IMG/VR virus record: IMGVR_UViG_3300044475_000063
Span: 34,392 to 98,391 of that record
DNA length: 64,000 bases
Source: a virus
Direction: 5' to 3' (one strand)
The notes under the pieces are model-generated. The model made no database searches. It had not been told where the DNA came from and saw only the letters and a list, made by a program, of their open reading frames with translations. A program made the position numbers and the translations under genes. This document shows positions 4,311 to 64,000 of this stretch, piece after piece. The number at the start of each line of letters is the position of its first letter. The stretch's first letter is position 1.

Positions 4311-4322
4311 AGGAGAATCACA

Positions 4323-12497: not shown

Positions 12498-12539
12498 GGC
12501 ACTTCGATAGGCTATGATCGCCTTTGCAGAGTGGGCAGG

Positions 12540-13072: not shown

Positions 13073-13111
13073 TTTAAGTTCCGATGGTTGATTTGCATTA
13101 ATCTATCACAA

Positions 13112-13982: not shown

Positions 13983-14227
13983 TTCTCGCGCTCCTTAAGC
14001 ATGGCATCGGCAATTAAGAAAGCTTGCTTAGCCGCAAAATCATAAACATCAACAAGATAGTTATCCCCTGGCCGTGTTAAATCGACATTGAGCCACGCTT
14101 GCATCGCCTTTGCCGCGAAGTAGTCACGGATCGAAAGGCCGGGGAATTGCCAAGTATTAGGGCCGTCTTGATGCCCCTCTACGCCAGAAGTAGAAACTGG
14201 GAATGCTGGCTCACTAACTTTGCTCAT
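13979..14227 (-). CDS. hypothetical protein (82 aa)
   Basis: Overlapping stop/start within the cassette. Confidence 0.5.
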   Translation of the reverse strand: MSKVSEPAFPVSTSGVEGHQDGPNTWQFPGLSIRDYFAAKAMQAWLNVDLTRPGDNYLVDVYDFAAKQAFLIADAMLKEREK

Positions 14228-14595
14228 TCCTTCTCTCCCGGCAGCACTACGTCTCCGTCTTGGATGGCGCGGCGGATGGCGGCGTTGGCGATTGTTCGCT
14301 TAGAGAACAAAGCTGCTGAATCGCTTACTGCGTCCAATTCCTCATTGGTCATGCGAGTCTCTGGAGACTTAGGTTCTGGCTTGATGCGGAACGTGCCATG
14401 CAGAGGAAAATTCCAATCATCATCCTCCATATCCTTAAAGAAAGCTTTGCCATCTGCAACACCAGCGAATCGTTGCACAACTTCTCCGTTTGCCTTGGCA
14501 ATAATGAATTCTGCTAGTTTGTGAGGTTTTTTCATTTGCATTCCTTTGAAGTATATTTCAGAGCGAATTTCTGCCATAAAGTCTACGGCGCTCAT
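14224..14595 (-). CDS. hypothetical protein (123 aa)
   Basis: C-terminal AIRRAIQDGDVVLPGEK is shared with 62871..63197. Confidence 0.6.
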   Translation of the reverse strand: MSAVDFMAEIRSEIYFKGMQMKKPHKLAEFIIAKANGEVVQRFAGVADGKAFFKDMEDDDWNFPLHGTFRIKPEPKSPETRMTNEELDAVSDSAALFSKRTIANAAIRRAIQDGDVVLPGEKE

Positions 14596-14810
14596 TTTGA
14601 AAGTTCCCAGCCTTCCTCTTGAAGCTTTTCAGCATAGAGGCGGTTAATCGAGAACATGTAGTAGAAATTGGCGAAACCGAACGTAAAGAACGAGATAGCC
14701 GCTTGAGGCCACATGCCACGGCTGATGAAAACGAGGAAGCCGAAGAAGAAAGTAGTCCAGCTAAAGCCCTCGGGGACGTGGCGGGTGATGTTGTTGCGGG
14801 TTGCGATCAT
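14592..14810 (-). CDS. two-TM membrane protein (72 aa)
   Basis: Hydrophobic segments FSWTTFFFGFLVFI and AAISFFTFGFANFYYMF. First gene of the reverse cassette. Confidence 0.6.
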   Translation of the reverse strand: MIATRNNITRHVPEGFSWTTFFFGFLVFISRGMWPQAAISFFTFGFANFYYMFSINRLYAEKLQEEGWELSK

Positions 14811-14954
14811 TACATTTCCTTTGGGTGGACTCGTTCGGTTTTAATGAAAAGTGGGATAAAACCAAATAGACACACTTTGGTTGTACGATGAAGTTTTTCA
14901 TTTTGTGGGCCAGATAGGTGATAGCTCACATCAAAAGTAATCATTTAAATCTCC

Positions 14955-15047
14955 TATAAATTATTCAGTAACAACATCATGCCTTAGATGGTTGCGCGTT
15001 ACCAATAGATTTTTTCTATTGAATTTGGATTGTGATATTATTCCGCT
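14955..15047. promoter_or_regulatory. conserved divergent control region with inverted repeat AATAGA-N5-TCTATT
   Basis: About 90 nt nearly identical to 63208..63301. The inverted repeat is at 15004..15020 (63257..63273 in unit 2). Lies between the reverse cassette and the scaffold gene. Confidence 0.35.
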
Positions 15048-16139
15048 ATGGCTACCTATCAAAGATACGACCGCGCCGAATTTAAGGCAACCAAGACTGA
15101 CGAGGGCTTTCTAGTCGATAGCCCTATCGTCGGTCGAGTCGGCATTCAAGAGTATCGCCGCGCTGATGGCACGATGCGACGTGAGTTGCGCTTGCCTGAG
15201 AATGTATTCCATGCCGATGCGCTGGCTTCAATGCGCGGCAAGCCGATTACTAGCGGCCATCCGGGCTCGGGAAAAGTTACTGCGGCTGATTCTCACCGCG
15301 TGACTATTGGAACGATCCTGAGTGAAGGTCGTCAAGATGGCGATAATATGCGCACCGACATTGTTATCCATAATGTGGCGGCAATGGGGAAGAATAAAGA
15401 GCTTTCCCTAGGATATACGTGCCATATGGACGAAACGCCCGGTGTGCATCCGGTGTATGGCCCTTACGACGCTATTCAAGGCGTCCCAATTACCAATCAT
15501 TTATCCGTTGTCCCCGTTGCTCGCGCTGGCGCAATCGCCCGCTTGAACTTGGATAGCATGGATCAGGAAGATTTTTCAACCCAGCAGGAGCAACAAACTA
15601 TGAGCATGGTCAAAGTACGACTTGACAGCGGCTTAGAGTATGAATGCGCTCCCGAAGTCTCGGTGGCGCTCGACAAGCTGCGCTCCGATGCTGCGGAAGC
15701 TGCAACCAAACTCGCGGCCATTCCAACCCTGACGGCAGAGCGCGATACGCTGAAAGCGCGTGTTGACGGCTTTGCGGCAGAACTGACTAAGGCTAAAGAC
15801 GAAGGCAAGGCCGCTGGCCGCGCCGAAGTTGAAGCTAAGGCCAAGCTGGATGCGGTTGCTACTGCATTCAAGATCGACGCTAAAGACATGACTGAGCGCC
15901 AAGTCAAGGAAGCGGTTATCAAAGCCGTTACCCCAGCGCTGGTTCTGGATGGCAAAGACGATGCCTATATCGATGTTGCCTTCGCAATGGCCCAAGAGTT
16001 CAAAGGCGATGCAGCCATGGCAGATCAGCGCCAGAAAGCGCAACATCGCAACGACGGAGGCGATAACAAAGCCCAAGGCAGCATGTCGGCGCGTGACAAA
16101 ATGATTGCTCGTATGAGCGGTAAGAAGGAGGACAAATAA
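15048..16139 (+). CDS. scaffold / prohead-protease-like protein (DUF2213-like)
   Basis: Position upstream of the capsid gene, and an Ala/Lys/Glu-rich coiled C-terminal half. Homolog at 63302..64000. Confidence 0.65.
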   Translation: MATYQRYDRAEFKATKTDEGFLVDSPIVGRVGIQEYRRADGTMRRELRLPENVFHADALASMRGKPITSGHPGSGKVTAADSHRVTIGTILSEGRQDGDNMRTDIVIHNVAAMGKNKELSLGYTCHMDETPGVHPVYGPYDAIQGVPITNHLSVVPVARAGAIARLNLDSMDQEDFSTQQEQQTMSMVKVRLDSGLEYECAPEVSVALDKLRSDAAEAATKLAAIPTLTAERDTLKARVDGFAAELTKAKDEGKAAGRAEVEAKAKLDAVATAFKIDAKDMTERQVKEAVIKAVTPALVLDGKDDAYIDVAFAMAQEFKGDAAMADQRQKAQHRNDGGDNKAQGSMSARDKMIARMSGKKEDK

Positions 16140-31541: not shown

Positions 31542-32323
31542 TGGGCCATTATACTAAACCTGTTCAAAATACGAACATAATTTCTAGCGCTGCAAATAAT
31601 ATAGCCACTGGCAAGTTTGGCAATGGTAATGTGGCATTTATTAATTCAACCCAAACATTTACTATTCCAGCTGTTAATATTAGGGTTAGGGGTTGGGGCG
31701 CTGGTGGGAATGTAGCAGCTATTAGCAATGCTGGCGGCGCTGGTGCTGGTGGATTTTTTCTTAAAACGATTACCGGCCTAACTGTTGGGGCAACTGTTTC
31801 AGCTACAGTTGGGGCAACTGCTGGCTCAAGCACATCTTTTGGAGCTTATGCTTCGGCTACTGGCGGCGCTAGCTCTACAACCTCTTCTGGTGGGGCTGGT
31901 GGTAGTGGCTCTAGTGGCGATATTAATTCCACAGGTGGTTCTGGTGGGGTCAATGGAGCATCTGGCGGTGTAGGGGGGGTTTTTGGAAATGGCGGCGCTG
32001 GCTGGTTATCTGGCGGAACGTCAAGTATGAATGGCAATTCTGGCGGTGGTTCATCTAGTTCTACTATACCTGCTGGTAATGGTGTATTTGGTCATGGTGG
32101 AAATATTACAAGCGGCAATGGTGAACCCGGTGATAACTATTCCATAGATTGGATTGGTACTGGTGGTGGCGGCGGTCCTTCCACTGCTGGTAATGGAGCA
32201 GGACACGGAGCAAACGGGGGGGGTGGTGGCGGAAGTACCAATGGAGCAAACTGCGGAGATGGTGGATTCCCTGGCGGTGGCGGCAGGATTGGCGCTCGTG
32301 GTCTAATTATCGTGGAGTGGTAA
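31541..32323 (+). CDS. glycine-rich tail-fibre-like protein
   Basis: Irregular GGxGG tracts ending in ...GARGLIIVEW, a pattern seen in phage glycine-rich fibre domains. Confidence 0.6.
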   Translation: MGHYTKPVQNTNIISSAANNIATGKFGNGNVAFINSTQTFTIPAVNIRVRGWGAGGNVAAISNAGGAGAGGFFLKTITGLTVGATVSATVGATAGSSTSFGAYASATGGASSTTSSGGAGGSGSSGDINSTGGSGGVNGASGGVGGVFGNGGAGWLSGGTSSMNGNSGGGSSSSTIPAGNGVFGHGGNITSGNGEPGDNYSIDWIGTGGGGGPSTAGNGAGHGANGGGGGGSTNGANCGDGGFPGGGGRIGARGLIIVEW

Positions 32324-33015: not shown

Positions 33016-33424
33016 TTACGCATTGACCGTGTTACGGATTTACATGGGGGGGAATGCCATTGTTGCGTGGCATACGGCTATTAGCGAGCCTAGATCATTG
33101 ATTGCAGAGGCTACACGCACTCCAGATTCACTAGTTCTTATTTGGCTTCTAGGCATTGTAGGAGTACTTTTTGCGGTAGACGTTATAATAAATGACATTA
33201 TGCCGCAGCGATTTATTTGGAAGCGAGCGCTTAAATACAGGCATTTCCTATTTTCAGCGCTCGCATATTGCTATGTTGCGCAATTGTTTGTCGGTGTTAT
33301 GGCTCATCAAGGCTTAGCACTGCTTATTTCTTTCGTCTGGAATGCTTCGATAATTATGATTGCGGCATTCTTGGACGCTAAAAAACGTTCAAGGGACGCG
33401 GGATGCGCAATGTTATACAACTGA
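32996..33424 (+). CDS. multi-pass membrane protein (142 aa from MNRRLSDY)
   Basis: Hydrophobic segments. The ORF is open from 32885 but the upstream part overlaps the previous gene. Confidence 0.5.
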   Translation: MNRRLSDYALTVLRIYMGGNAIVAWHTAISEPRSLIAEATRTPDSLVLIWLLGIVGVLFAVDVIINDIMPQRFIWKRALKYRHFLFSALAYCYVAQLFVGVMAHQGLALLISFVWNASIIMIAAFLDAKKRSRDAGCAMLYN

Positions 33425-42231: not shown

Positions 42232-43316
42232 TAGTACGCGATGCTCACGTTAGCAACTTTGCCTTGCGCAATCAGCTTTACCGCCATCATTGCCTGCTCT
42301 GCTGATAAGCCTCCAGCAATAAGGCATTCCATTGCATCGCGGTTGATTTTTGCTTTATGTTCCTTGTTGCGCTCGCGTGCGGCTGCTTCGTCAGCTACGC
42401 GCTGGGCTTCCGCTGCAATACGGTCCTGCTCTGCCTTGATCGCACGCTGCTTATCTTCCTCTGCACGCTTCTCGGCGGCGATACGGCGCTGCTCTGCCTC
42501 GGCTGCTTCTGCAATGCGGCGACGTTCTGCGGCTTCGGCGTCACGTTGGGCCTTTTCTTCAGCTTGCTTGATTGCCAGTGCTGCCGCCTCTTCCTTGCGC
42601 TTGGCTTCGGCTTGGGCTGCTTCCAATTCCTTGCGCGCCTTCTCTGCCTCAGCCGCTGCCTTTGCTTCGGATTCGCGCTGGGCCTTCTCTGCTGCCGCTT
42701 TGGCAATAGCCGCTTCATGCTCGGCCTTAGCTCGGGCTTCTGCTTCGGCGCGCAAGCGGGCCAGTTCTGCGGCTTCCTCGTCGCGCTTGATGGCTGCTTG
42801 CAGCGTGTCGTTCAGCTTCTGCAAAACTGCTTCCTTGGTAGTAGCGGCTTGCGCCATCATTTCTTCCCAATCGGCAGTAATGGCGATAGCCTCAACACGC
42901 GCAATCTCGGTTCGGATATCTGCCGCCTCGTTGAATGCACCAAGGTTCTGCGAGATTTCCTCGTAGCGCTTTTGTAGGGCGGCTACACGGTCTTTCTCGC
43001 GCTGTTCGATTTCGTCCAACTTAGTTTGGTGAACGGTAATCATCGCCTCAATGCGAGATTCAATCTCGGCGGCTTCCGAGTCAACAGCGCGGCCCAATCG
43101 CAGGTATTCTGCCTTAGCTTCCTTGCGGACGCGCTCCAATGCTCCCTTGGTCTTGCGCAGGCTGAATACGTGGCTACGCGCTTCCTTGTTACCTTTGGGC
43201 GATTCGTAGTTGAACACTAGCGCCGCATTGTCCGCTTCCAGCTTTGCCAGTTCGGAATAGAAGGGTTGATAAGCTGCTACTTGCGTGGTTTGTGCATCAA
43301 GGATTTCGGTAGTCAT
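42231..43316 (-). CDS. coiled-coil protein of the recombination module (361 aa; Ala/Glu/Lys/Arg-rich repeat region)
   Basis: Globular N-terminal domain followed by about 150 aa of AEAxxKAE-type low-complexity helix. Confidence 0.6.
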   Translation of the reverse strand: MTTEILDAQTTQVAAYQPFYSELAKLEADNAALVFNYESPKGNKEARSHVFSLRKTKGALERVRKEAKAEYLRLGRAVDSEAAEIESRIEAMITVHQTKLDEIEQREKDRVAALQKRYEEISQNLGAFNEAADIRTEIARVEAIAITADWEEMMAQAATTKEAVLQKLNDTLQAAIKRDEEAAELARLRAEAEARAKAEHEAAIAKAAAEKAQRESEAKAAAEAEKARKELEAAQAEAKRKEEAAALAIKQAEEKAQRDAEAAERRRIAEAAEAEQRRIAAEKRAEEDKQRAIKAEQDRIAAEAQRVADEAAARERNKEHKAKINRDAMECLIAGGLSAEQAMMAVKLIAQGKVANVSIAY

Positions 43317-43966
43317 TAGGCTTCTCCATGTTCTTCGTAAATTTGCTCAACACGGCGGCGCAGGTAGGCTTGCGCAACCTTCACTTTTGCGATCATTTTT
43401 GCTTCGATTTCTGCATCGCGCTTGATCGTGGCGCGGGTTACTCGTAAAGCTGGGTCGATATGGTCAACTTCGTGCAGCGATGCTTGCTCCCACTTGCGTA
43501 GTTCTTCGGGAGTGCTTACCATCGTATAGGCTACCTCGCCTTCGTCTACATCGTAAAGAGCCATGTAAGACCACAGTTGATAGTCATAGCCTGATTTCTT
43601 TGCGATGGCTAGAACTTCCTCGCTGGTGGCGGGGAACGTCGCTAGTGACCATGCGTTTTTAATGTCGATAACTTTGGTCTTTGGAACCAAGATATCGCAC
43701 TCACCAGTTACCCATTCATTCGTTAAGCGAACCGTGTTTTTCTCATGGCGCGACAGCGTGACCATGTTGTAAAGGTCAATTGCTGCCTGTTCGCACTCAA
43801 TGCCCTTTTTTAAATACTTGGTGTCGATTTCCTCGCGGAAGCCGTAGACGTATTCCTTGGCAATGCCGTTCAGGAAGGTTTTAGCGCCGACACTTAGGCC
43901 ATCAGCGCCTTTGCCATCAGCCATCAACTCAGCAATCGAAGAAGCGCGGAAAGTGATATCGATCAT
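43316..43966 (-). CDS. PD-(D/E)XK nuclease (YqaJ/exonuclease-like)
   Basis: The motif GECDIL...KVIDIKN fits D...(D/E)xK. ATGA overlap with the erf stop. The ORF is open to 44029. Confidence 0.6.
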   Translation of the reverse strand: MIDITFRASSIAELMADGKGADGLSVGAKTFLNGIAKEYVYGFREEIDTKYLKKGIECEQAAIDLYNMVTLSRHEKNTVRLTNEWVTGECDILVPKTKVIDIKNAWSLATFPATSEEVLAIAKKSGYDYQLWSYMALYDVDEGEVAYTMVSTPEELRKWEQASLHEVDHIDPALRVTRATIKRDAEIEAKMIAKVKVAQAYLRRRVEQIYEEHGEA

Positions 43967-44709
43967 TTCTGCACCTCTTTTTGCGCCGCGATCATAGCCA
44001 ATTCCTGATCTGCATTCAGGGTGTACCACGCCTTAATTTCCTCAATTGTGTATTCTCCAGCCTTAACCGACTTCATCGCGTTTTCAAACTTCTTAGCGCT
44101 CATGATCGGCAGCGCCTTGGTTTTGGCTTGCTCGGCTTGACTTGCGCCGTTGCCGTCGTCATCGCTGTTTGCATCGGTCGAAGCGAGGCCGCAAACGGAT
44201 TCGTAAGTAACCGCCTTGGCATAGGTGATTGCGCTCTTAATCTTCTGAATCTCGTTTTTTGCACCAGTTCCATCTGGCGGCACAACGAACGGCACAGATT
44301 CAGAGTGGCCCAGCGAATGCGACAGAATGCACGTTACCTTAATCATGCTGCCGTTTTGCTCGATCTGCCAATCAGCCGACAAGCCGTGCTTACTCAGATA
44401 AGGCGCTACAGTGTTGACCACGTTGCCAAGCGACGAATACCACGACTTGAACTGAGTATTGTATTTATCCTTGATGATCTTGATTGCCTCGCCTTTGAAA
44501 GCAGCCTTAGCAGCAGTGAAAGCCTTGCGCGCTTCATTGGCATCGTGACGCTCTTTCAAGGCCATCATGCGCTCGATAGTGTCGATATTGCCGCTTTGCA
44601 GGGCAACCATCAGCATGTTGTCAGGCGTCGCCGACAATGCCGTCTGAGGCTGCGCTACAGGCAAAGCTTGCGCCCGCTGGTCATCGACCAACTGAATTTC
44701 TTGGTTCAT
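43963..44709 (-). CDS. erf: single-strand annealing protein, ERF family
   Basis: The segment KDKYNTQFKSWYSSLGNVVNTVAPYLSKHGLSADWQIEQNG..IKVTCILSHSLGHSE matches the ERF core pattern. Confidence 0.7.
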   Translation of the reverse strand: MNQEIQLVDDQRAQALPVAQPQTALSATPDNMLMVALQSGNIDTIERMMALKERHDANEARKAFTAAKAAFKGEAIKIIKDKYNTQFKSWYSSLGNVVNTVAPYLSKHGLSADWQIEQNGSMIKVTCILSHSLGHSESVPFVVPPDGTGAKNEIQKIKSAITYAKAVTYESVCGLASTDANSDDDGNGASQAEQAKTKALPIMSAKKFENAMKSVKAGEYTIEEIKAWYTLNADQELAMIAAQKEVQK

Positions 44710-45298
44710 GGTTTCTCCGTGATGGGTAGTGTAAGGAGGGGATTTTCACCCCATTCCTTTTTAAGCGTGGTCGCTGTATGCAATAACTCTGGCGGGACGT
44801 TGTTTATCCTGAGTCTACTCAGAACCCGTCTTTGCATCTTCGATTCTGACCATATCGACCATGGGCATGTGCGCGTTCATGCTAGCGTGTGGTGGCCGGT
44901 GCTGATATCCGGCATTGGGCGTCTTATCCACGTTTCCCCATCCTTACTACCCAGCGTTTGGAACCCTGGTTGACAAGTAAGCGCATCAGCTTGCGCATTC
45001 ACCACATCGAAACGGGCTAGGGCTTGATACCTAGCTAATCGTATGTCGGTCATACGACTACCAACCAGTTGCGGAACCCCTTTTTAACGAGTCGGTTAAG
45101 CCTCTTTTGTCGCCTTCAGGTTGGTTAAGCACCCTAAGCTCCGTTTCCGCCGACCTTGCTTAGCACGTCCTTCCGTGCTGCCGTTTCGATGTGGTTCCTA
45201 GCACTTACGCGGCTAGGTTACGATACTAGGAATTAATCCCTTGTCCTAGTAGCTTGCTAGATTCTTTCGCCGTTCTTGGCTCTAGCGGGCCAAAAGGA
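44710..45298 (-). ncRNA. 589-nt ORF-free structured leader in the leftward early operon (contains module M at 45002..45194)
   Basis: No minus-strand ORF here. A 14-bp closing helix CCACATCGAAACGG/CCGTTTCGATGTGG, internal hairpins, and two sequence blocks identical to 57136..57154 and 57225..57245. Confidence 0.45.
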
Positions 45299-45479: not shown

Positions 45480-45782
45480 TCATTCCCCTTTGGTGTGAAC
45501 GTACATATCATCGCGCTCGCGCTGCTCTGCGCGCATCTGCTTTTCAAGTGCGCGGCGGTCGCAAAGGTGCGTTACCTCGTAGCATGGGCCGTAGCTCAGT
45601 TTGATCCCGCCGCTTTCTGTTGCAAACTCTACGCCATCGTCTGCATAAACGCGAACGATAGTGCCGTCTTCGATAATACAGGTCAGAGTTACCGCCTGCA
45701 CCTGCTTTACAGGCATGCTTAATCCGCCGCCTATGCTGATATCCGTCTCAAGGTTGCTTACTACTAAGCCGATTGCTGGCAT
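45480..45782 (-). CDS. hypothetical protein (100 aa from MPAIGLV), first gene of the leftward operon
   Basis: GGAGGAAAT RBS. Confidence 0.55.
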   Translation of the reverse strand: MPAIGLVVSNLETDISIGGGLSMPVKQVQAVTLTCIIEDGTIVRVYADDGVEFATESGGIKLSYGPCYEVTHLCDRRALEKQMRAEQRERDDMYVHTKGE

Positions 45783-45824
45783 ATTTCCTCCGTGTCGATG
45801 TGATGAATAGTACATGCAATCTAG

Positions 45825-50159: not shown

Positions 50160-50204
50160 CCCACCCCGCCCGCGACAAGCGGGCGCTACCTGAAAGGATG
50201 AATC

Positions 50205-50414
50205 ACGTTTGATGACTATGAAGAAGAGCCAGAAGCAAAGCGCATCTTTGACATTGCCGATCAGCTAGATGATCGCTTGGATGATTACGCGCTTGAGCGC
50301 TGCAAATCGTCGGAGGACGTTATACGCGGCGGCAAGCATGGGCGCGTGTACACCTTTCACGATGGGAGCAAATTGACCACGGCTGAAACTGGCTATGTTG
50401 GTTGCGAATACTGA
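50205..50414 (+). pseudogene. homolog of 57..266 whose ATG is ACG (start codon lost, or a non-canonical start)
   Basis: Same length and frame and about 90% identical. An in-frame TGA lies 2 codons upstream, so no alternative upstream start exists. Confidence 0.4.
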
Positions 50415-50488
50415 TTAACCGGCCCGCTAGACGGGCCTAAGCCACTAGAACCTAGCGCAATTGTGCGCTGGTAGATATAGGAGGAAGT

Positions 50489-50779
50489 ATGAGCAAGCAT
50501 ACGCCGGGACCTTGGGTAATCAATCGCAATCAAACTGATTGCGGCGAAGATAAAATCAGCATTGAAGCCGCTGATGAATATTTTATCGCGCAAGTTGATC
50601 CCGGAGTAAGTCAAGAAGCAAACGCTAGCCTGATCGCTGCCGCGCCTGAACTGCTGGAAGCTTGCCAATTGATGCTTACTGCAATGAAGCTGGCAAATTG
50701 GGAGGGCGATTTTGCAGCGCTAAAAGGAATTGCGGCGATTGCCAAAGCAACCGGCGAAACTCATGAGGAGGAAGTATGA
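50489..50779 (+). CDS. hypothetical protein (96 aa), unit-2 specific
   Basis: ATAGGAGGAAGT RBS. Confidence 0.5.
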   Translation: MSKHTPGPWVINRNQTDCGEDKISIEAADEYFIAQVDPGVSQEANASLIAAAPELLEACQLMLTAMKLANWEGDFAALKGIAAIAKATGETHEEEV

Positions 50780-50955
50780 GTGAAGATGAAAAAGACGAGT
50801 GGTTTTCTAAGGGATACAGTTCCTATACTTCACTGGGAGATATAACGCCACCTGAGAATGCCACTCAAGAACAGAAACACGAATGGTATGAAGGCTGGCA
50901 ACAGGCTGTGCGCGACAGTTATGAGTTCCATGATGATTATGGAGCTTCACTTTAG
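50776..50955 (+). CDS. hypothetical protein (59 aa, MSEDEKDEWF...)
   Basis: Not in the ORF track. ATGA overlap and a GGAGGAAGT RBS. Confidence 0.4.
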   Translation: MSEDEKDEWFSKGYSSYTSLGDITPPENATQEQKHEWYEGWQQAVRDSYEFHDDYGASL

Positions 50956-51006
50956 CACCTAGCAACCAGCAGTAGAATAAACCAATTTCACTAAGCGGAG
51001 GCGGTC

Positions 51007-51195
51007 ATGGTAACAGTGTCTCAGATGGTAAGGGCGTTAAATTCGGATCAGCATTGCCACATGGCTTCATGGGAGCGTGACGCGGTGCATCGAGCGCATA
51101 TTCGATCTTGCCACGGCCTGAAGCCTTATCACCTGACGCTCCGCGAGTGCGAATTAATCATCACTATTTTTAACAGGGTGTACCAAAATGCGTAA
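51007..51195 (+). CDS. hypothetical protein (62 aa)
   Basis: Homolog of 581..769. Confidence 0.6.
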   Translation: MVTVSQMVRALNSDQHCHMASWERDAVHRAHIRSCHGLKPYHLTLRECELIITIFNRVYQNA

Positions 51196-58364: not shown

Positions 58365-59794
58365 GCGCTATTGAGATTTTCCCGGCGTATGAGGAATATC
58401 TGCAGCCGGCTCGCTTCAAGGTTGCATACGGCGGGCGCGGATCGGCTAAAACGCGCACATTCGTAACCATTCTTCTAAGCAACGTCCTGCATTTTGGCTG
58501 GCGAGTTGTTGCTTTTAGGGAGTTAATGGAAAGCATCGAGGACTCAGTTTATCAAGAAGTGGTTGCAGAGATTACGCGCCGCGAGTGGGATAAATGGTTT
58601 GACGTGCTTAAGACAGAGATTCGCTGTCCTGTCAGCGGTGGTGTATTCAAGTTCTCAGGCATTAAATCGAGCGCTAAGCGCCTCAACAGCCAAAAGCTTA
58701 AGGGTTTCTCAGACTTTGATGCCGCATGGCTGGAGGAGGCCAATCCTGTGTCTGTCGAGTCATGGAATGCGCTCATTCCTACCATGCGTAAGCCGGGTTC
58801 AGAAATTTTCGTATCCTTTAACCCGGAAAACCCACTTGAGGAAACCTATAAGCGGTTTGTGACTGAGCGCAAATACCCTGATTACTTGGGTGGAAAGCGC
58901 TATTGCATAGTCAAAAAGCTGAATTACGATGCAAACCCGCGATTCCCTCAAGAGTTGCGCGACGACATGGAGTTAATGAAGGCGACGGACTTTGAAATGT
59001 ACCGTCACGTCTATTTGGGTGAGCCTGTGAGCAATTCTGACTTGTCGATCATCAAGCCGATATGGATTGAAGCGGCAATGGATGCGCACCTGCACATTGC
59101 GGACTTCCCTATGGGAGGCGGCAAGATCGGCGGATTTGACGTATCTGGAGGCGTTGAGGGGGATATTGCAACACCCAAGGCAAACGATCCAAACGCCTTT
59201 GCATGGCGTCATGGCTGCATCCTGCAATCGCTTGAGGAATGGCATGACGAAGACCCTAATCGCGCCGCTGCGACGTGTTATGAGCATGCATATCGCTCTC
59301 AAGTGGACACGCTCAATATTGACGATATTGGCGTTGGTGCCTCTGTTCCTGGCGAACTAAGGCGCTTGCAGGGCGAAGCCTATGCAAAGAGCGTTAAGAT
59401 CAAGCAGATCAATTTCCACGGCTGGACAGCATCCGAAGGACCGCAAGACCCTGATGCAGAGTACATGCCGGGTAAAACGAACTTTGATATGTTCGCCAAC
59501 CTCAAGGCGCAGGGATGGGGAACGCTGGCAGATCGCTTTAGGGCAACTTGGCAAGCGCGTAACGGTCTGCCATACGACAAAGACAAGCTAATCAGCCTGC
59601 CTAGTGGTTTGTCTCTTGTTGACAAGCTTAAGGCAGAACTAGCCCAGCCGCGACGCGAGATTATCAATGGACGATTCAAGGTAGAAGGCAAGAAAAAGCT
59701 CAAAGAGCGCGGCATCCCATCGCACAACTTGGCCGATGCGGTTGTTATGGCATTTGCGCCGGGTGATAGCTTTGATCTATCAGCACTGATATGA
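58361..59794 (+). CDS. terL: terminase large subunit (different family from the unit-1 TerL)
   Basis: Walker A is YGGRGSAKT and Walker B-like is DAAWLEEA. Lies directly upstream of the portal gene. Confidence 0.85.
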   Translation: MSAIEIFPAYEEYLQPARFKVAYGGRGSAKTRTFVTILLSNVLHFGWRVVAFRELMESIEDSVYQEVVAEITRREWDKWFDVLKTEIRCPVSGGVFKFSGIKSSAKRLNSQKLKGFSDFDAAWLEEANPVSVESWNALIPTMRKPGSEIFVSFNPENPLEETYKRFVTERKYPDYLGGKRYCIVKKLNYDANPRFPQELRDDMELMKATDFEMYRHVYLGEPVSNSDLSIIKPIWIEAAMDAHLHIADFPMGGGKIGGFDVSGGVEGDIATPKANDPNAFAWRHGCILQSLEEWHDEDPNRAAATCYEHAYRSQVDTLNIDDIGVGASVPGELRRLQGEAYAKSVKIKQINFHGWTASEGPQDPDAEYMPGKTNFDMFANLKAQGWGTLADRFRATWQARNGLPYDKDKLISLPSGLSLVDKLKAELAQPRREIINGRFKVEGKKKLKERGIPSHNLADAVVMAFAPGDSFDLSALI

Positions 59795-59842: not shown

Positions 59843-61201
59843 ATGGCACGAACTAAAGGCGCACTCGGCAAAAAGACATTGGAGCGAATGCAGCAAGGCG
59901 GAGGTGTAACTGTAACAGACTCATATGCTGAGGTCTTTACGGGCGCAGGGACAAATCGGGACCGTAGCAGCTACACGCGCATTGCCCGCACCGCCATGCT
60001 GCAACAGATGGAATGCTCTCTGCTGTACTTGGGCGACGGCTTTGCGCGCAAGATTGTGGACGTGCCAGCAGAGGAAATGACGCGCTCCGGGCTTGAGCTT
60101 GAGGATTTGGAGGACGAGGAACTAGAGCAGTTCGTCATGGCGCGGCTTGATGATCTGGACGCCATGCGGCACTTTAATGATGCTGTGGCGTGGTCTAGGC
60201 TGCATGGCGGCGCGGTGATGATCTTCGGCCTGAATGATGGAGGCACGCTTGACGTTCCGCTTAATCCAGATGGAATCAAGAGCGTTGAATTCCTCCGAGT
60301 TTATGACCGCTGGCAAGCGACTATCCAGACCCGCGTGACCGATCCGAGCAGCCCGGACTATGGAAAGCCTGATATTTGGCTCATTTCTCCGCTCGATGGT
60401 GCGCAACCGTACAAAGTGCATAACTCGCGCCTTTGGATGTTTGACGGCGACCGCATTCCCGATTTTGACCGCAATGCTAATCAAGGCTGGGGTGCATCGG
60501 CGCTACAAGCTTGCCAAGATCAGCTTAAGCGCCTCGGAATGGGCCATCAATGGACGCTGGCTATCCTTGAGCGTGCGCAACAGGCTGTGCATAAGATTCC
60601 GAATCTCGCGCAGACATTGCAAGCGCCAGGAGGTGAAGCACTGGTACGCAAGCGCGTTGACGTCGTTGACATGGTGCGTGGCATCCTGAATACCATCGTT
60701 GTAGACGAAAAGGAAGCATACGAAGTCACCACGGCCACGCTAACGGGCTATACGGACGTGCTAGACCGATTTGCGGAGGCACTGGCGGCTGTATCGGGCA
60801 TTCCAGTGTCCATCCTCATGGGGCGCTCGCAGGGAGGCTTAAGCAATACCGAAAAAGGCACCATGGATGCTTGGTACGCTCGTATCGAATCGATGTGGAA
60901 TGACATTCTGCGCAAGCCGCAAGATCGCCTGATTCAGTACATCATGATTGCGCAACAAGGCGAAGCGCCGGACTATAAGCTGTGCATGAAGCCTTTGAGC
61001 GTTCTCAGTGAGCAGGAAGAAGCCGATGTGGAACTGAAAGAGGCGCAAACTTGCAAAGCCCGCGCAGAGGCTGAGAGCATCCGAATTGCTGATGGCGTAC
61101 TCGATCCGCTGGAAGTGCGCGAAACGCTCAAGGATGATTATCCTCTGTTCTCCACGCCACCAGAGCCGCCAGAAGCACCAGAGGTAACTAATGGCATCTA
61201 A
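59843..61201 (+). CDS. portal protein
   Basis: About 90% identical to 9451..10806. Confidence 0.8.
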   Translation: MARTKGALGKKTLERMQQGGGVTVTDSYAEVFTGAGTNRDRSSYTRIARTAMLQQMECSLLYLGDGFARKIVDVPAEEMTRSGLELEDLEDEELEQFVMARLDDLDAMRHFNDAVAWSRLHGGAVMIFGLNDGGTLDVPLNPDGIKSVEFLRVYDRWQATIQTRVTDPSSPDYGKPDIWLISPLDGAQPYKVHNSRLWMFDGDRIPDFDRNANQGWGASALQACQDQLKRLGMGHQWTLAILERAQQAVHKIPNLAQTLQAPGGEALVRKRVDVVDMVRGILNTIVVDEKEAYEVTTATLTGYTDVLDRFAEALAAVSGIPVSILMGRSQGGLSNTEKGTMDAWYARIESMWNDILRKPQDRLIQYIMIAQQGEAPDYKLCMKPLSVLSEQEEADVELKEAQTCKARAEAESIRIADGVLDPLEVRETLKDDYPLFSTPPEPPEAPEVTNGI

Positions 61202-62027
61202 GACCCGCGCTTGGTTGTATCCTCACACAGCCGAGCGCAATTACCAGCGAATGCTAACCGCCTACGTGGACGAGTTCACGAAGGAGGGATTGGCGCATCT
61301 GAAAGAGCTTGAATTGCTGCGCATGGATGGTTGGAGCGATGATCTGACAAATGCTATTCTTTACATTCTGCAAACTGCGCTCACGGCAGGGCAAAGGGTA
61401 ATCGCACGTCTGCCCGAAGTCTACGCGCAGGTCAACCAGTTCAATGACCGACAGTTTCGGCTAGTGGTCAAGGCTGGCACAGGTCTAGAGATTGGGCCTA
61501 GCGGACGATTGCCGCCCGGTTCTGTGCCATTCGGTAACGTATCCGACCCGCGCTTGATTCGAGCACGTTTCGGTGTAGGCGTGGACGTTTATCGCTCCGA
61601 ACCTTGGTTGGCACAAGCGCAAACGAACTGGGTAGCGTCAAACACAGCACTGATTAAGTCGATTCCAGCGCAGCATATGGAGCGTGTAGAGCAGATCATC
61701 AGAAATGGCGTATTGCAAGGCGAATCGCCACGGTCACTTGCGGCTAAGATCGAAGAGGCTGGCGGCGTTACTAAACGACGTGCGCAGCTAATCGCTTCTG
61801 ACCAGATTGGCAAGGCAAATGCTGAACTAACTCAGTATCGGCAAACCGAGCTAGGAATCAAGGAATACGAATGGGTTGATAGCCATGATGAACGGGTCAG
61901 GCCGCTGCATCGTGTCTACAACGGTCAAATTTTCTCTTGGGATAAGCCGCCAGCAGATGGGCATCCGGGTTATGCCGTAAAGTGCAGATGCCGCGCATCG
62001 CCGCGCTTTCCTGACTCCGCCAATTAG
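61191..62027 (+). CDS. head morphogenesis protein (SPP1 gp7 / Mu F family)
   Basis: Signature HDERVRPLH...GHPGYAVKCRCR. Confidence 0.85.
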   Translation: MASKTRAWLYPHTAERNYQRMLTAYVDEFTKEGLAHLKELELLRMDGWSDDLTNAILYILQTALTAGQRVIARLPEVYAQVNQFNDRQFRLVVKAGTGLEIGPSGRLPPGSVPFGNVSDPRLIRARFGVGVDVYRSEPWLAQAQTNWVASNTALIKSIPAQHMERVEQIIRNGVLQGESPRSLAAKIEEAGGVTKRRAQLIASDQIGKANAELTQYRQTELGIKEYEWVDSHDERVRPLHRVYNGQIFSWDKPPADGHPGYAVKCRCRASPRFPDSAN

Positions 62028-62072
62028 GGCATTTCGATAGGCTATGATCGCCTTTGCAGAGTGGGCAGGTCA

Positions 62073-62405
62073 TTATGCCTCCCCAAACAGGGCCGCTACC
62101 AGCGGGTCCCGCTGCACACGTTCAGGGAGCAAATCCCCCTGAGTATTGCGCGGCCTTTTCATCGTATAGAACTGCACGCGCTGGCCTTCGATAAGCTTTT
62201 TCTCGCCTTTGAAGATGCCTTCGGCTTGATAAAGCCCACGGAAAAGGCTTGTCGCCTCCTGAATCGTCAAGCCTAGCTCCTTAGCCGCATGATGGGGGCA
62301 ACTCTCCCCGTCGCGCTCAATGATTTCTTCAACCTCTGCCATCAATTCCAGCCGTGACTTCTTCACAGCCGACTGTAAAAACTTGATCGTGAGCGATTTA
62401 AGCAT
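62073..62405 (-). CDS. hypothetical protein (110 aa)
   Basis: Homolog of 12734..13072. Confidence 0.6.
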   Translation of the reverse strand: MLKSLTIKFLQSAVKKSRLELMAEVEEIIERDGESCPHHAAKELGLTIQEATSLFRGLYQAEGIFKGEKKLIEGQRVQFYTMKRPRNTQGDLLPERVQRDPLVAALFGEA

Positions 62406-62424
62406 TTTTCCTCCTAATGTTGCA

Positions 62425-62874
62425 TCAATCTATCACAATTGGTTCTTCGCTAAGGCCGCGCCACAACGGACGCCACATGTAGTCTTGTCGGTATGAGGCG
62501 TTGAAATCTTTTTGCCTCTGCGTATGCTCTTCAAGAATTGCATATGACCAACCATCACCGTGCCACCAACGCTTATAGGCAGGATCATGAGACGAAAACT
62601 TAACCTCATATTCACCAACAATAGTAGGTTCACCGAGAACAAATTCGGTATATGAAATAGCAGCATTGATTTCATCCGCTACTTCGCGGAAGGATTTAAC
62701 AAGTATCCCCATTCCAGAAGGAAATTCAAGACTATCGAAATAAATGTAGCCTCGGCTGCACGCTGTTAGCAAAGAGAAGGCTCCGCCATTGCGCAGCCCA
62801 TAAAACTTAGCAATCCTCTCAGCGAAGGGAGTTTTACCGTTGGGGGCGCCGTAGACGATCATGGATGGGTTCAT
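62425..62874 (-). CDS. hypothetical protein with a Walker-A-like GAPNGKT
   Basis: The N-terminal half is homologous to 13255..13719. Confidence 0.6.
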   Translation of the reverse strand: MNPSMIVYGAPNGKTPFAERIAKFYGLRNGGAFSLLTACSRGYIYFDSLEFPSGMGILVKSFREVADEINAAISYTEFVLGEPTIVGEYEVKFSSHDPAYKRWWHGDGWSYAILEEHTQRQKDFNASYRQDYMWRPLWRGLSEEPIVID

Positions 62875-63197
62875 TTCTTCTCTCCCGGCAGCACTACGTC
62901 CCCGTCTTGGATTGCGCGGCGGATGGCGATATTTACACCGTCACGAATAACCTTGAGTTGCGATGGAGTAGAATCGTTGATAAATGCATGAGCCAATTCA
63001 TGATCTTCCATCCGCGTCACAGGATAAACAGGATCTTGCTTGATGCGGTATTCGTGATGCTCTTGCCAGTTTAGGCAAGACAACGCGAAATTTGCATCAA
63101 CTAACATCCATTCTTCCGAATTGTTCTTACGGACCTCAATATCTTTTCCGTCCGCCGCAGCCTTAATGACCTCTGCGTGTTTATGTGGTTTGTTCAT
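62871..63197 (-). CDS. hypothetical protein (108 aa)
   Basis: The C-terminus is shared with 14224..14595. Confidence 0.55.
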   Translation of the reverse strand: MNKPHKHAEVIKAAADGKDIEVRKNNSEEWMLVDANFALSCLNWQEHHEYRIKQDPVYPVTRMEDHELAHAFINDSTPSQLKVIRDGVNIAIRRAIQDGDVVLPGEKK

Positions 63198-63301
63198 TTA
63201 ATACTCCAATAAATTATTCAGTAACAACATGATGCCTTAGATGGTTGCGCAATGCTAATAGATTTTTTCTATTGAATTTGGATTGTGATATTATTTGCGC
63301 T

Positions 63302-64000
63302 ATGAACACTGTCCAGCGATACGATTACGCCGAAATTAAGGCCGTCAAGACTGACGAGGGATTCTTGCGCGATACGCCGATTGTGGCGCGTGTTGGCATT
63401 CAAGAATACCGTCAGCCTGATATGTCTATTCGCCGTGAATTGCGTTTGCCAGAAGAGGTTTTCCACGCTGATGCGCTTGCATCGATGAAGGGTAAGCCGA
63501 TCACGATCACTCACCCAAAATCGGGCCGTGTGACTGCCAAGGATGCGCACCGCGTGACTGTTGGCACGATGCTTACTGAGGGAAAGCAGGATGGCGAGAA
63601 TGTACGCACTGAGATTGTGATTCACTCGCCTGACTCTATGGGCAGCGCTCGGCAGCTTTCGCTAGGTTACAAAGCCGATATGGACGAAACGCCGGGTGTT
63701 CACCCTGTGTACGGCCAATACGATGCGATTCAGCGAAATATCCGTGTCAATCATTTATCCGTTGTCCCTGTTGCTCGCGCTGGCGCAATCGCCCGCTTGA
63801 ACTTGGATAGCATGGATCAGGAAGATTTTTCAACCCAGCAGGAGCAACAAACTATGAGCATGGTCAAAGTGAAACTTGACAGCGGCTTAGAGTATGAATG
63901 CGCTCCCGAAGTCTCGGTGGCGCTCGACAAGCTGCGCTCCGATGCTGCGGAAGCTGCAACCAAACTCGCGGCCATTCCAACCCTGACGGCAGAGCGCGAT
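63302..64000 (+). CDS. scaffold / prohead-protease-like protein, 3'-truncated by the window edge
   Basis: Starts MNTVQRYDYAEIKAVKTDEGF. Homolog of 15048..16139. The last ~225 nt are nearly identical to 15521..15745. Confidence 0.7.
   Translation, partial: MNTVQRYDYAEIKAVKTDEGFLRDTPIVARVGIQEYRQPDMSIRRELRLPEEVFHADALASMKGKPITITHPKSGRVTAKDAHRVTVGTMLTEGKQDGENVRTEIVIHSPDSMGSARQLSLGYKADMDETPGVHPVYGQYDAIQRNIRVNHLSVVPVARAGAIARLNLDSMDQEDFSTQQEQQTMSMVKVKLDSGLEYECAPEVSVALDKLRSDAAEAATKLAAIPTLTAERD

Follow-up and report, generated by a model that had tools for sequence, protein, structure and literature searches.

A structured RNA module with tRNA-like topology in bacteriophage operons and tRNA arrays

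Two copies of the module in one phage region

The window, i.e. the whole 64,000-nt stretch that was analysed (positions 34,392 to 98,391 of the IMG/VR virus record IMGVR_UViG_3300044475_000063), contains two copies of a structured RNA module. Copy 1 lies in a leftward operon with the order orf111, module, Erf, exonuclease. Copy 2 is found where the rightward early region ends, ahead of the terminase genes, in a 1.9-kb RNA-gene island that also contains three tRNAs and a degenerate tRNA. The features of the two regions are as follows.

Copy 1 and its surroundings:
43316-44029: exonuclease gene, after Erf
43963-44709, minus strand: first gene that follows copy 1, encoding an Erf-like single-strand annealing protein
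44981-44996, minus strand: terminator-like hairpin at a distance of 5 nt from the 3′ end of copy 1, GCGCA-AGCUGA-UGCGC and then UUACUUGU
45001-45195, minus strand: module copy 1, whole (closing helix to closing helix)
45001-45015, minus strand: 3′ strand of closing helix P1, CCGUUUCGAUGUGGU
45016-45035, minus strand: T-arm-like hairpin GCUAGG-UAUCAAGC-CCUAGC
45036, minus strand: A, the last interior base, which is the family-invariant A before the T-like stem
45036-45162, minus strand: variable interior of 127 nt, predicted to be multi-branched
45163-45178, minus strand: D-arm-like hairpin GCACG-GAAGGA-CGUGC
45179-45180, minus strand: two-base linker CA (family consensus C-R), at the place of tRNA positions 8-9
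45181-45195, minus strand: 5′ strand of closing helix P1, ACCACAUCGAAACGG, acceptor-like
45480-45815, minus strand: ORF of 111 aa (orf111), upstream of copy 1

Copy 2 and its surroundings:
55986-56143, plus strand: tRNA-Arg(UCU) and tRNA-Gly(UCC), start of the island with copy 2
56949-57026, plus strand: degenerate tRNA-like element that ARAGORN did not call, 100 nt upstream of copy 2; its acceptor has 10 bp and its anticodon loop contains CAU
57123-57257, plus strand: module copy 2, whole
57123-57137, plus strand: 5′ strand of closing helix P1, AUUACAUAUCAUCGG; 14 pairs and one 1x1 mismatch (57129/57251)
57138-57139, plus strand: linker CA
57140-57155, plus strand: D-arm-like hairpin GCACG-GAAGGA-CGUGG, 4 bp with G/G at the outer pair
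57156-57222, plus strand: variable interior of 67 nt, ending with the invariant A57222
57223-57242, plus strand: T-arm-like hairpin GUUAGG-UAUCAAGC-CCUAGC with one U.G pair
57243-57257, plus strand: 3′ strand of closing helix P1, CCGAUGAUCUGUAAU
57584-57661, plus strand: tRNA-Ile(AAU), 327 nt downstream of copy 2
57683-57704, plus strand: strong intrinsic-terminator-like site (8-bp GC-rich stem, then UUUUUUU) between the RNA island and the terminase genes
57786-59794, plus strand: two genes downstream of copy 2, an ORF of 192 aa at the place of the small terminase, with no more than a weak HTH_7 match, and the large terminase subunit

A first-pass annotation of this DNA had described cores of 19 and 21 nt that are identical in both copies, enclosed by helices that are altered at nearly every position yet remain complementary. 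Core matching within the window confirmed the former, and the latter holds for both copies. The window contains exactly two instances of the 5′ core CAGCACGGAAGGACGTG, at 45164-45180 (minus strand) and 57138-57154 (plus strand), with a chance expectation of ~0.1 matches when up to three mismatches are allowed. The 3′ core TAGGTATCAAGCCCTAGCCCG is likewise found only at 45013-45033 (minus strand) and 57225-57245 (plus strand), with 0.0 occurrences expected. The helix of copy 1 (ACCACATCGAAACGG with CCGTTTCGATGTGGT, 45181-45195 paired with 45001-45015) comprises 15 bp rather than the 14 bp given at first. That of copy 2 (AUUACA.AUCAUCGG with CCGAUGAU.CUGUAA, 57123-57137 paired with 57243-57257) comprises 14 bp and one 1x1 mismatch; the mismatch had been recognised, and the 12 bp reported with it represent only the inner part. 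The interiors had been estimated at ~130 and ~70 nt, close to the measured 127 and 67 nt, and the 3′ core folds as described, i.e. GCUAGG-loop-CCUAGC with a U.G variant in copy 2. The 5′ hairpin is closed by a G-C pair in copy 1, whereas G faces G at this place in copy 2; the folding z-scores are −4.7 and −1.7, respectively.

The interior of copy 2 is, by eye, about 90% like those of two other loci (L076 and L021). The interiors of the two window copies share only a repeated 15-mer, on the same strand, and no significant complementarity was found for them elsewhere in the window, which argues against an antisense guide. The copies had originally been assigned to two different units. They do belong to two transcription units in two orientations; however, both flank the same immunity region, and the gene order usual in lambdoid phages makes a single phage unit most likely. 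The other related unit in the window (1-6502, similar to 50180-56943) has a homologous upstream region and no module before its terminase.

A family of modules with a conserved secondary structure

Each core has at least 100-120 exact matches in IMG/VR viral contigs. The family was delimited by a descriptor scan with controls, which retrieved about 175 distinct modules elsewhere that share one common architecture; reversed or complement-only sequence yielded 1 match, compared with 180. From 5′ to 3′, the module consists of the closing helix, a C-R linker, a 5-bp hairpin with the loop GA(A/U)GGA, the interior, an invariant A, a second 5-bp hairpin with the loop U-N-UCRA-R-Y and, directly after it, the 3′ strand of the closing helix. 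The closing helix most commonly has 8 bp, with 16-21 bp in ~12% of the members, and its sequence is not conserved across the family. The total length is 110-200 nt.

The interiors are hypervariable. They range from 25 to 400 nt, with 60-100 nt being most common, and 146 of the 180 are devoid of a detectable relative. Their stability is barely above that of shuffled sequence (mean z −0.44, a weak signal at the population level), and a conserved stem closing the interior was not found, the result being no better than the shuffled control. Some modules hold tRNA-like pieces in the interior, and tandem copies of the module exist.

With short composite queries, cultured carriers were limited to five phage species (seven records), in all of which the module is unannotated. 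Their hosts are Caulobacter, Pseudanabaena (a cyanobacterium), Komagataeibacter (phage phiKX1), Acidovorax, and Alcaligenes; the phages share the same loops and include temperate and lytic phages of different types. A megablast of both window regions against 50,697 phage records gave no match. In bacterial genomes, the architecture surrounds only ~11 of 56 matches to a 17-mer, and chance matches are devoid of it. The sole other exact match to the T-like hairpin of the window (L001) lies at the end of an HNH-like reading frame, has no 5′ hairpin, and is probably a chance match or a fragment. The 4227 models of Rfam 15 returned nothing over the modules, neither for the window nor for 26 further loci, at thresholds of E ≤ 0.1 to 10. 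The family was not found described in the literature, which was searched for sequence strings and topics; a survey of 10,006 phage RNA candidates may list it unnamed.

The first-pass proposal of a portable RNA domain under selection for structure is borne out by these homologs, which number in the hundreds and carry compensatory changes in the closing helix and in both hairpins. Changes that alter both sides occur at 17 of the 17 scaffold base pairs, and the covariation score is 0.70, compared with 0.17 for shuffles and 0.06-0.12 for slid partners. A test that did not assume the pairing used 114 loci that were seeded on the 3′ hairpin alone. When the 5′ hairpin was chosen by its own stem alone, the closing helix was fully paired (8/8) in 63 of these loci and paired at 7/8 in 28. 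Conversely, when the site was chosen by complementarity of the closing helix alone, the 5′ hairpin had a complete 5/5 stem in 90 of 103 cases. Among the non-Watson-Crick pairs, G.U outnumbers A.C (49 vs. 19, and 24 vs. 3 in the two hairpins alone), and this excess points to an RNA of the annotated strand.

Two kinds of mobile or reverse-transcribed element were considered and rejected. Copy 1 is followed by the Erf and exonuclease genes and copy 2 by tRNA-Ile and terminase, in contrast to a retron msr/msd, in which inverted repeats a1/a2 flank the non-coding RNA and the reverse transcriptase gene comes directly downstream. In a MITE, the terminal inverted repeats are conserved between copies and bordered by direct target duplications, whereas here the terminal helices of the two copies differ at nearly every position while the internal cores are identical.

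Comparison with tRNA and other known RNAs

Judged by sequence, the topology and the invariant bases of the module match the tRNA cloverleaf and its D-loop/T-loop elbow. The structural reading of the first-pass annotation stands, yet the tRNA topology, the tRNA signature bases, and the company of tRNA genes had escaped notice. The module shares with tRNA (RF00005) a four-arm topology, in which an acceptor-like helix leads through a linker of two bases to a D-like hairpin whose loop contains GG, and a T-like hairpin, carrying U-C-R-A in its loop, directly adjoins the 3′ strand of the acceptor. Modules also occur within tRNA arrays, with spacers of 2-15 nt. Several of the shared bases were not required by the search, i.e. 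the linker C (180/180), the A before the T-like stem (168/171), and the G-C pairs at the places of G53-C61 (120/122) and G10-C25 (110/122). The GA.GGA and U-C-R-A loops were required by the descriptor and are also present in seeds chosen on the other hairpin; their GG and U-C-R-A bases hardly vary. A loosened descriptor of the family additionally retrieves genuine tRNAs, with interiors of 21-23 nt.

The module differs from tRNA in several respects. It has no anticodon arm (5 bp, 7-nt loop), but a hypervariable domain of 25-400 nt instead; the T-like loop has 8-9 nt rather than 7; the D-like arm has a 5-bp stem and a 6-nt loop; a C takes the place of U8; and the helix mostly has 8 bp, up to 21 bp, with no CCA encoded. 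Only a weak A-C-C tendency and no clear discriminator base follow the closing helix. The tRNA covariance model (family threshold 29 bits) matches neither window copy even at E ≤ 10, and in the window ARAGORN called only the four true tRNAs, no module and no tmRNA.

These departures bear on whether the modules could be decaying tRNA pseudogenes or a DNA-level element, such as a site for packaging or recombination, or a miniature transposon bounded by terminal inverted repeats. A probable derivation from tRNA, the frequent position upstream of terminase genes, and the integrase gene adjoining the module in the Caulobacter phage DMCA are compatible with an origin of this kind. However, the 8-nt T-like loop, the GA.GGA loop, and the linker C are themselves kept across phages of several phyla; the excess of G.U over A.C marks one strand only; the closing helices are not the same from copy to copy and are thus not transposon ends; and copy 1 lies in an early operon, far from packaging genes. 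We regard explanations at the DNA level, decaying tRNAs included, as highly improbable.

tmRNA combines a tRNA-like domain with a tag reading frame and pseudoknots, has a large insertion in the place of the anticodon arm, and carries the G3.U70 alanine identity pair. The module resembles it in its tRNA-like acceptor and T arm and in the large insertion at the same place. It differs in the absence of G3.U70 and of a CCA end, and its interiors are short and mutually unrelated. Identity with tmRNA was rejected, as the window copies have no reading frame, no tag, and no ARAGORN tmRNA call, and as there is no Rfam match.

Bacterial Y RNAs (YrlA, Yrn1) are also modular, with a tRNA-like D/T module and a helix formed by both RNA ends. 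In Deinococcus Yrn1, this helix binds Ro/Rsr and the distal part is tRNA-like; some Y RNAs are encoded by phages, and some are substrates of RNase P (PMC4201824). A relative of Yrn1 that tethers a host protein would account for the overall plan of the module (closing helix, D-like arm, middle domain, T-like arm), for its presence in phages, where Y RNAs occur as well (PMC4201824), and for an AUCGAAG in some closing helices, which is near the YrlA motif GNCGAAN0-1G. However, this motif is confined to a subset, the closing-helix sequence not being conserved family-wide, and YrlA is permuted, with the order T, acceptor-like stem, D vs. D-like, interior, T-like in the module; identity with YrlA was rejected. 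Y RNAs of the YrlA type are encoded no more than ~4 kb from a Ro/Rsr (TROVE) gene, with which they share a strand, whereas no such protein cluster recurs within 3.5 kb of the ~180 modules, nor does any long protein among the flanking gene clusters. Whichever Y-RNA models Rfam 15 contains, none of them matched the two window regions at E ≤ 10. A Y RNA relative is thus very unlikely.

The large phage RNAs GOLLD and ROOL have 500-800 nt or more and ornate folds, assemble into cages, and are found near tRNA islands (PMC12286853). The module shares with them the status of a non-coding RNA of phages and prophages near tRNA islands; the GOLLD linker sometimes holds tRNAs, as some module interiors hold tRNA-like pieces. 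The folds are unrelated, and the module, with 110-200 nt, has a tRNA-like scaffold.

Genomic company and candidate roles

Wherever a tRNA lies within 1 kb of a module, the two share a strand (33/33), and the same holds for 36 of 36 modules when the distance is extended to 3 kb. Eleven modules lie 2-15 nt from a tRNA, and in one locus (L095) the module starts 2 nt past the CCA end of one tRNA within a run of 19 tRNAs. Many members, copy 1 among them, have no tRNA nearby and sit between protein genes at operon heads, a position that fits a role in cis as well. As crude ORF calling renders strand statistics for neighbours noisy, the context was read from protein clusters shared between loci and from tRNA calls. 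Genes for terminase, recombination, lysis, and NusG-like proteins are common neighbours. A consistent protein partner was rejected: the flanking genes are diverse, and the largest cluster, the large terminase, accounts for only 19 of ~180 modules.

A terminator within 60 nt downstream was predicted for 7 of 174 modules, and few have a promoter-like site within 50 nt upstream, suggesting that the module is embedded in longer transcripts. A stand-alone small-RNA gene was rejected on the same grounds. The stem of the hairpin 3′ of copy 1 covaries and is kept after related modules in two other loci (L003 and L021), in the second of which no U tract follows.

The position ahead of gene blocks raises the possibility of a cis-acting processive antiterminator, in which the nascent module would bind its own RNA polymerase and enable it to read through terminators further downstream, both within the leftward early operon and on the way into the late genes. 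The precedent is the put RNA of HK022, which has ~70 nt and folds as two stem-loops into a V shape with a triplex, without a helix joining the ends (PMC9378689). Like putL and putR, the window copies are a pair of related RNA elements that a single temperate phage carries in different operons, each preceding a gene block and terminators (PMC9378689): a strong terminator separates copy 2 from the terminase genes, and a terminator-like hairpin directly follows copy 1. Family-wide, predicted terminators are enriched ~2-fold 100-300 nt downstream on the same strand, 28 loci have a large terminase gene 1-2 kb further downstream, which in 26 of them shares the strand of the module, and a gene for a NusG-domain protein is directly upstream on the same strand in all eight loci that have one. 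By this analogy, put is a possible functional analogue of the module.

Several observations argue against this explanation. By inspection, there is no evident similarity to put in sequence or structure; put is a 70-nt V of two stem-loops without a closing helix, whereas the module has such a helix, two short conserved hairpins, a variable domain, and tRNA features, and its occurrence extends to tRNA arrays and a lytic N4-like phage. In that phage, it lies in a region whose counterpart in N4 is transcribed by phage-encoded polymerases. Modules also occupy a slot in a dense tRNA array, 2 nt past a tRNA end, lie between convergent genes in phage DMCA, and occur in tandem, and the related unit in the window has the homologous upstream region but no module ahead of the terminase. 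Nor would an antiterminator explain the tRNA signature bases or the hypervariable interior. A role in terminator readthrough is possible, yet other readings are better supported, and we consider an antiterminator quite unlikely and less likely than a tRNA mimic.

With moderate confidence, and on the basis of the sequence comparisons, we favour the view that each copy encodes a tRNA-mimic RNA that is matured together with the phage tRNAs. The closing helix would stand in for the acceptor stem, the GCACG-GAAGGA-CGUGC hairpin for the D arm, and the NNNGG-UAUCAAGC-CCNNN hairpin, stacked directly on the closing helix, for the T arm, with the hypervariable domain replacing the anticodon arm. We infer a loop-loop contact, in which the invariant GG of the first loop and the U-C-R-A of the second would form an elbow equivalent to G18-psi55, G19-C56, R57, and A58. 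The module would be transcribed within longer phage transcripts, i.e. those of tRNA arrays and of the leftward recombination operon as well as the packaging-gene leader, and would be excised by the tRNA-maturation enzymes of the host, RNase P at the 5′ side and trimming enzymes at the 3′ side. The product would be a stable tRNA-shaped RNA, which may act in trans. Its conserved face may bind a factor, conserved among bacteria, that recognises the shape formed by acceptor, T arm, and elbow, and the variable domain would be the cargo. The partner is probably a host factor, because the same loops occur in phages of diverse hosts and types and no consistent protein accompanies them.

The pattern of conservation is consistent with a tRNA mimic. 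RNase P and other readers of the tRNA shape ignore the position of the anticodon arm (e.g. PMC4810234, PMC4919913), so that the conserved parts of the module are those that such readers recognise and the variable part is the one that they ignore. In contrast, the 8-9-nt T-like loop, the 5-bp D-like stem, the C at the place of U8, the lack of an Rfam tRNA match, the absence of CCA or a clear discriminator, and the many members not near tRNAs count against it. RNase P prefers an acceptor helix of 7 bp. The closing helices, mostly with 8 bp and up to 16-21 bp, exceed this length, which also argues against the mimic; bacterial Y RNAs without a 7-bp stem were not cleaved (PMC4201824).

The same structural and contextual evidence would also fit a processing signal only, in which the tRNA-like fold recruits RNase P (or RNase III for long helices) to cut polycistronic phage RNA and thereby sets mRNA ends or stability, the excised RNA having no function. 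Plant mitochondrial t-elements and the mascRNA of MALAT1 are precedents for tRNA-like transcript processing, and in the engineered tRNA scaffold for RNA expression a cargo takes the place of the anticodon arm. In all three, as proposed here, a tRNA shape in a longer transcript recruits tRNA-processing enzymes; they are, however, eukaryotic, organellar, or artificial, and the literature searched describes no bacterial or phage family of tRNA-like processing signals or scaffolds of this kind. Modules between genes within an operon, e.g. in the order orf111, module, Erf (in the window for copy 1 and in L076), conservation limited to the parts read by RNase P, and hypervariable interiors, 146 of 180 without a detectable relative, are compatible with a mere signal. 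Conversely, the interiors remain long (mostly 60-100 nt) and have not decayed to a minimal stem, flanking tRNAs in arrays already provide cleavage sites, long closing helices are ill-suited to RNase P, and the D-like and T-like loops appear to be more conserved than RNase P would need. We consider a processing signal without further function unlikely.

If the variable domain of the tRNA mimic is indeed a cargo, phages would carry a natural tRNA scaffold, a frame excised and stabilised by host tRNA maturation that displays a fast-evolving RNA payload in the place of the anticodon arm. The near-shuffled stability of the interiors (mean z −0.44) and the absence of a conserved closing stem offer such a role no direct support, and we give this extension a small chance. 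If it is true, the payloads could be decoys or regulators, directed against host defence or at host or phage gene expression, and the family would represent a general delivery vehicle for small RNAs in phages of Proteobacteria and Cyanobacteria.

Mimicry of tRNA has recurrently served to borrow cellular machinery, as in tmRNA, Y RNAs, and the tRNA-like ends of plant viruses. The modules would be a new and abundant class of tRNA mimics in dsDNA phages of several bacterial phyla, absent from Rfam and unannotated in every cultured carrier, and a small, tractable addition to the unexplained RNAs that cluster in phage tRNA islands, beside GOLLD and ROOL. Cultured phage-host pairs are available for Caulobacter (DMCA), Acidovorax (AP1), Pseudanabaena (Pan3), and Alcaligenes (QDWS595), and a covariance model of the family would annotate hundreds of "empty" intergenic regions of phages. 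The family raises the question whether phages use tRNA-processing enzymes to make and stabilise other small RNAs.

Two copies of the module in the window

Both segments with identical cores that the first-pass annotation had described were found again when the sequence was re-read. Across its 64 kb, the window has exactly two occurrences of the 17-mer CAGCACGGAAGGACGTG and exactly two of the 21-mer TAGGTATCAAGCCCTAGCCCG, in each case one per strand (~0.1 and 0.0 occurrences, respectively, are expected by chance). From closing helix to closing helix, the two modules are:

45001-45195, minus strand: copy 1, whole module
57123-57257, plus strand: copy 2, whole module

Copy 1 consists of a closing helix of 15 bp, the linker CA, a first hairpin GCACG-GAAGGA-CGUGC, an interior of 127 nt between the two hairpins, and a second hairpin GCUAGG-UAUCAAGC-CCUAGC, after which the closing helix is completed by its 3′ strand. 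In copy 2, both hairpins recur, one of them with a U.G pair, around an unrelated interior of 67 nt. Its closing helix had been described as rewritten but complementary, and it does have another sequence, with 14 pairs and one 1x1 mismatch. Compared with shuffled sequences, the predicted fold is far more stable for copy 1 (z −4.7) and modestly more stable for copy 2 (z −1.7). The variant of the second, T-like stem that is common to both copies has only one doubtful match elsewhere, and multiple copies inside other phages usually differ in their stems, which suggests that the scaffold was recently duplicated or gene-converted within this phage.

Copy 1 lies in a leftward operon with the order orf111 (a 111-aa ORF at 45480..45815, minus strand), module, Erf-like protein, exonuclease. 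Copy 2 lies in a 1.9-kb RNA-gene island just before the terminase genes, with the order tRNA-Arg, tRNA-Gly, degenerate tRNA, module, tRNA-Ile, strong terminator. In the degenerate tRNA-like element (56949-57026, plus strand), the acceptor helix has 10 bp (GCCGATTTGT/ACAAGTCGGC), the anticodon loop contains CAU, and the T arm, GGTTCGATTCC, is canonical; the element is not called by ARAGORN, and its tRNA-model score is only 16.6 bits. A stray T-arm-like piece is present at about 56490-56510.

The window contains two related phage units, in that 1-6502 resembles 50180-56943 with 74-96% identity; 9501-15746 and 59905-64000 also match. The matching parts comprise early-right regions, tRNA islands, and portal/head genes, whereas the terminase genes differ (Terminase_2 at 6696-7118 versus a 192-aa ORF at 57786-58364). 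Near the junction, at about 34.7-35.0 kb, the ORFs tested included none for an integrase-like protein. A Betaproteobacteria-1 RNA (RF02932; 1675-1795, plus strand; 57 bits, above the family threshold) is present in the first unit, in its early region. In this unit (1-6502), tRNA-Gly is present and there is no module before the different small terminase gene; the module thus behaves as an accessory gene within the tRNA island would.

Extent, layout and covariation of the family

In a search for further homologs, both cores were found to recur widely in IMG/VR viral contigs, with at least 100 exact matches for the 5′ core and more than 120 for the commonest 3′ hairpin form, AGCCGGTATCAAGCCCGGC, among the matches listed. 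Nearly all loci matched by either core have the same layout. A layout descriptor identified 180 instances in 171 of the 275 sequences scanned (L-numbers below are handles of such sequences), compared with one instance in reversed or complement-only controls. In a 596-Gb genome collection, the 17-mer had 56 matches, about chance level by our estimate, and only ~11 of these have the module architecture (Nitrosomonas, Comamonas, Burkholderiales, Undibacterium, Sphingomonas, Acetobacteraceae, and several metagenome-assembled genomes); it was not found at the Streptomyces-type matches.

The consensus starts with a closing helix of mostly 8 bp (range 6-21), a C-R linker, and a first hairpin with a 5-bp stem and the loop GA(A/U)GGA. 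An interior of 25-400 nt (mostly 60-100) and an invariant A precede the second hairpin, which has a 5-bp stem and the loop U/A-N-U-C-R-A-R-Y and runs without a spacer into the closing helix's 3′ strand. The 5′ stem occurs as GCGUG/CACGC, GCGCU/AGCGC, GCACG/CGUGC, GUGUG/CACAC, AUGCG/CGCAU, and ACCGC/GCGGU.

The structure was borne out by covariation: in 122 distinct scaffolds, which had been pre-selected for pairing, both sides changed in 17 of 17 pairs, and the covariation score was 0.70 versus 0.17 for shuffled and 0.06-0.12 for slid partners. Because of this selection, a second test was made that presupposed no pairing, using 114 loci seeded on the 3′ hairpin alone. When the choice of the GA.GGA site rested only on the stem of that site, the closing helix paired at 8/8 positions in 63 loci and at 7/8 in 28. 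When the site was picked by closing-helix complementarity alone, the 5′ stem was perfect in 90 of 103. Among non-Watson-Crick pairs, G.U was more frequent than A.C (49 versus 19; within the hairpins 24 versus 3), and the structured molecule is therefore the RNA of the annotated strand. That the module is a DNA-level element or a pseudogene is the least probable of all readings.

Long closing helices of 14-20 bp define a subfamily (copy 1, L003, L019, L021, L024, L043, L076, L080, L088, L159, L179, and Acidovorax phage AP1, L279 4986-5118). In the outer part of the helix a sequence motif has been kept, with CCAUCACAUCAG in the 5′ strand and CUGAUGUGAUGG(U)GA in the 3′ strand, which suggests shared ancestry or an added binding site. 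Directly past the closing helix of copy 1 lies a terminator-like hairpin (44981-44996, minus strand; AAUGCGCA-GCUGA-UGCGCUU). This hairpin is kept in a subfamily (L003, L021) with a covarying stem, GCGAA/UUCGC in L021, where it lacks a U tract and may thus serve as an additional structural element instead of a terminator.

Some contigs carry two or three modules, on the same strand (L038, L047, L059, L259, L262; spacing a few to ~250 nt) or on opposite strands (L060, L156; divergent pairs a few kb apart), usually with unlike stems and interiors.

The interiors are hypervariable, and 146 of the 180 have no detectable relative. No conserved stem closing the interior was found across the modules, and interiors are only slightly more stable than shuffled sequences (mean z −0.44). 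The same interior can occupy different genomic positions: that of copy 2 recurs in L076 between orf111 and Erf, i.e. in the slot held by copy 1 in the window. A few interiors (L012, L028, L048, L040, L068, L064) contain tRNA-like pieces, namely sequences of the D-arm and T-arm type (for example GGTAGCTCAGTCGGGAGAGC and GGTTCAAATCC), with an apparently complete cloverleaf in L040 and L068; ARAGORN called none of these pieces. A 15-mer related to AAGCGCTGCAAATAG occurs five times in the window at ≤2 mismatches (0.43 expected), once inside the copy 2 interior, and could be a host-specific repeat, e.g. an uptake sequence:

147-161: 15-mer
31585-31599: 15-mer
33248-33262, minus strand: 15-mer
50295-50309: 15-mer
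57158-57172: 15-mer

Likeness to tRNA and genomic neighbours

In its layout the module follows the tRNA cloverleaf: an acceptor-like helix and a linker of two bases lead into a D-like arm, and after the middle domain comes a T-like arm stacking on the acceptor-like helix. The bases that hardly vary are signature bases of tRNA. In the first loop, GG corresponds to G18 G19, while the second and the last position hold A, as do A14 and A21 of tRNA; in the second loop, U-C-R-A corresponds to psi55 C56 R57 A58. Two G-C pairs stand at the places of G53-C61 and G10-C25. An elbow contact between the two loops would be expected from these correspondences. When loosened, the descriptor also catches true tRNAs, both in the window and at other loci, and their interiors measure 21-23 nt. 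An identity as a tRNA was dropped, as the module has no anticodon arm, a T-like loop of 8-9 nt, and C for U8. The tRNA model and ARAGORN did not detect the module copies, and no other Rfam 15 family matched over the modules in the window and 26 further loci.

The clearest neighbours are tRNA genes. Module and tRNA share the strand in 33 of 33 cases with a tRNA within 1 kb and in 36 of 36 within 3 kb. For 11 modules the distance to a tRNA is 2-15 nt, and the closing helices of these modules mostly have 7-9 bp; in L095, the module starts 2 nt past the CCA end of a tRNA, within a run of 19 tRNAs. Terminase genes (large, small) recur 0.2-2 kb downstream, the large one in 28 loci, and genes for Erf/RecT, a YqaJ-type exonuclease, and SSB are recurrent downstream neighbours. 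A phage gene for a NusG-domain protein (PF02357) lies directly upstream on the same strand, at 100-1100 nt, in all eight loci having one (L259, L221, L182, L267, L053, L054, L215, L186), and in L259 the module is closely followed by the large terminase gene; the arrangement has the look of a control region for late genes. Most modules have no promoter-like site ≤50 nt upstream or terminator ≤60 nt downstream and are therefore embedded in longer transcripts.

The module is unannotated in all cultured phage carriers:

Caulobacter DMCA: flanked by convergent genes for a transposase and an integrase
Pseudanabaena Pan3 (P22-like, judging from its annotated genes): ~800 nt upstream of the small terminase gene
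Komagataeibacter phiKX1 and phiKX2: adjoining tRNA-Met
Acidovorax AP1: carrier
Alcaligenes QDWS595: carrier, a lytic N4-like phage

Two known RNAs were found near modules. On viral contig L177, an abiF RNA motif (RF03085; 7856-7891, minus strand; 41 bits, above the family threshold) lies ~13 nt downstream on the same strand and may be a phage-borne copy of this defence-system-associated RNA. L179 has a Burkholderiales-2 RNA (RF02917; 1542-1615, minus strand; 93 bits) ~1 kb away on the opposite strand.

Possible role of the module

Positions at operon heads, downstream terminators, and NusG-like neighbour genes would fit a put-like antiterminator acting in cis, but the occurrence in tRNA arrays, between convergent genes, and in an N4-like phage makes this improbable. 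We give an even chance to a tRNA-mimic RNA: tRNA-maturation enzymes would cut the module out of the phage transcript, and it would persist as a stable tRNA-shaped RNA carrying a variable domain. This is favoured because RNase P and other factors that read the shape of a tRNA recognise the conserved parts, and because the module occupies slots in tRNA arrays and is not tied to one operon type. A further reason is that phages of very different kinds, from several phyla, carry it, which would fit a conserved partner in the host. Its weak points are the many closing helices of more than 7 bp and that modules encode no CCA end. A pure processing signal is a possible but less probable function, and a Y-RNA-like tether is very unlikely.

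No description of the family was found in the literature searched, and Rfam has no such family; it may be among the unnamed candidates of the large phage RNA survey PMC10690425. We place the family with the tRNA-like RNAs, and its interest lies in its abundance and clear structure.
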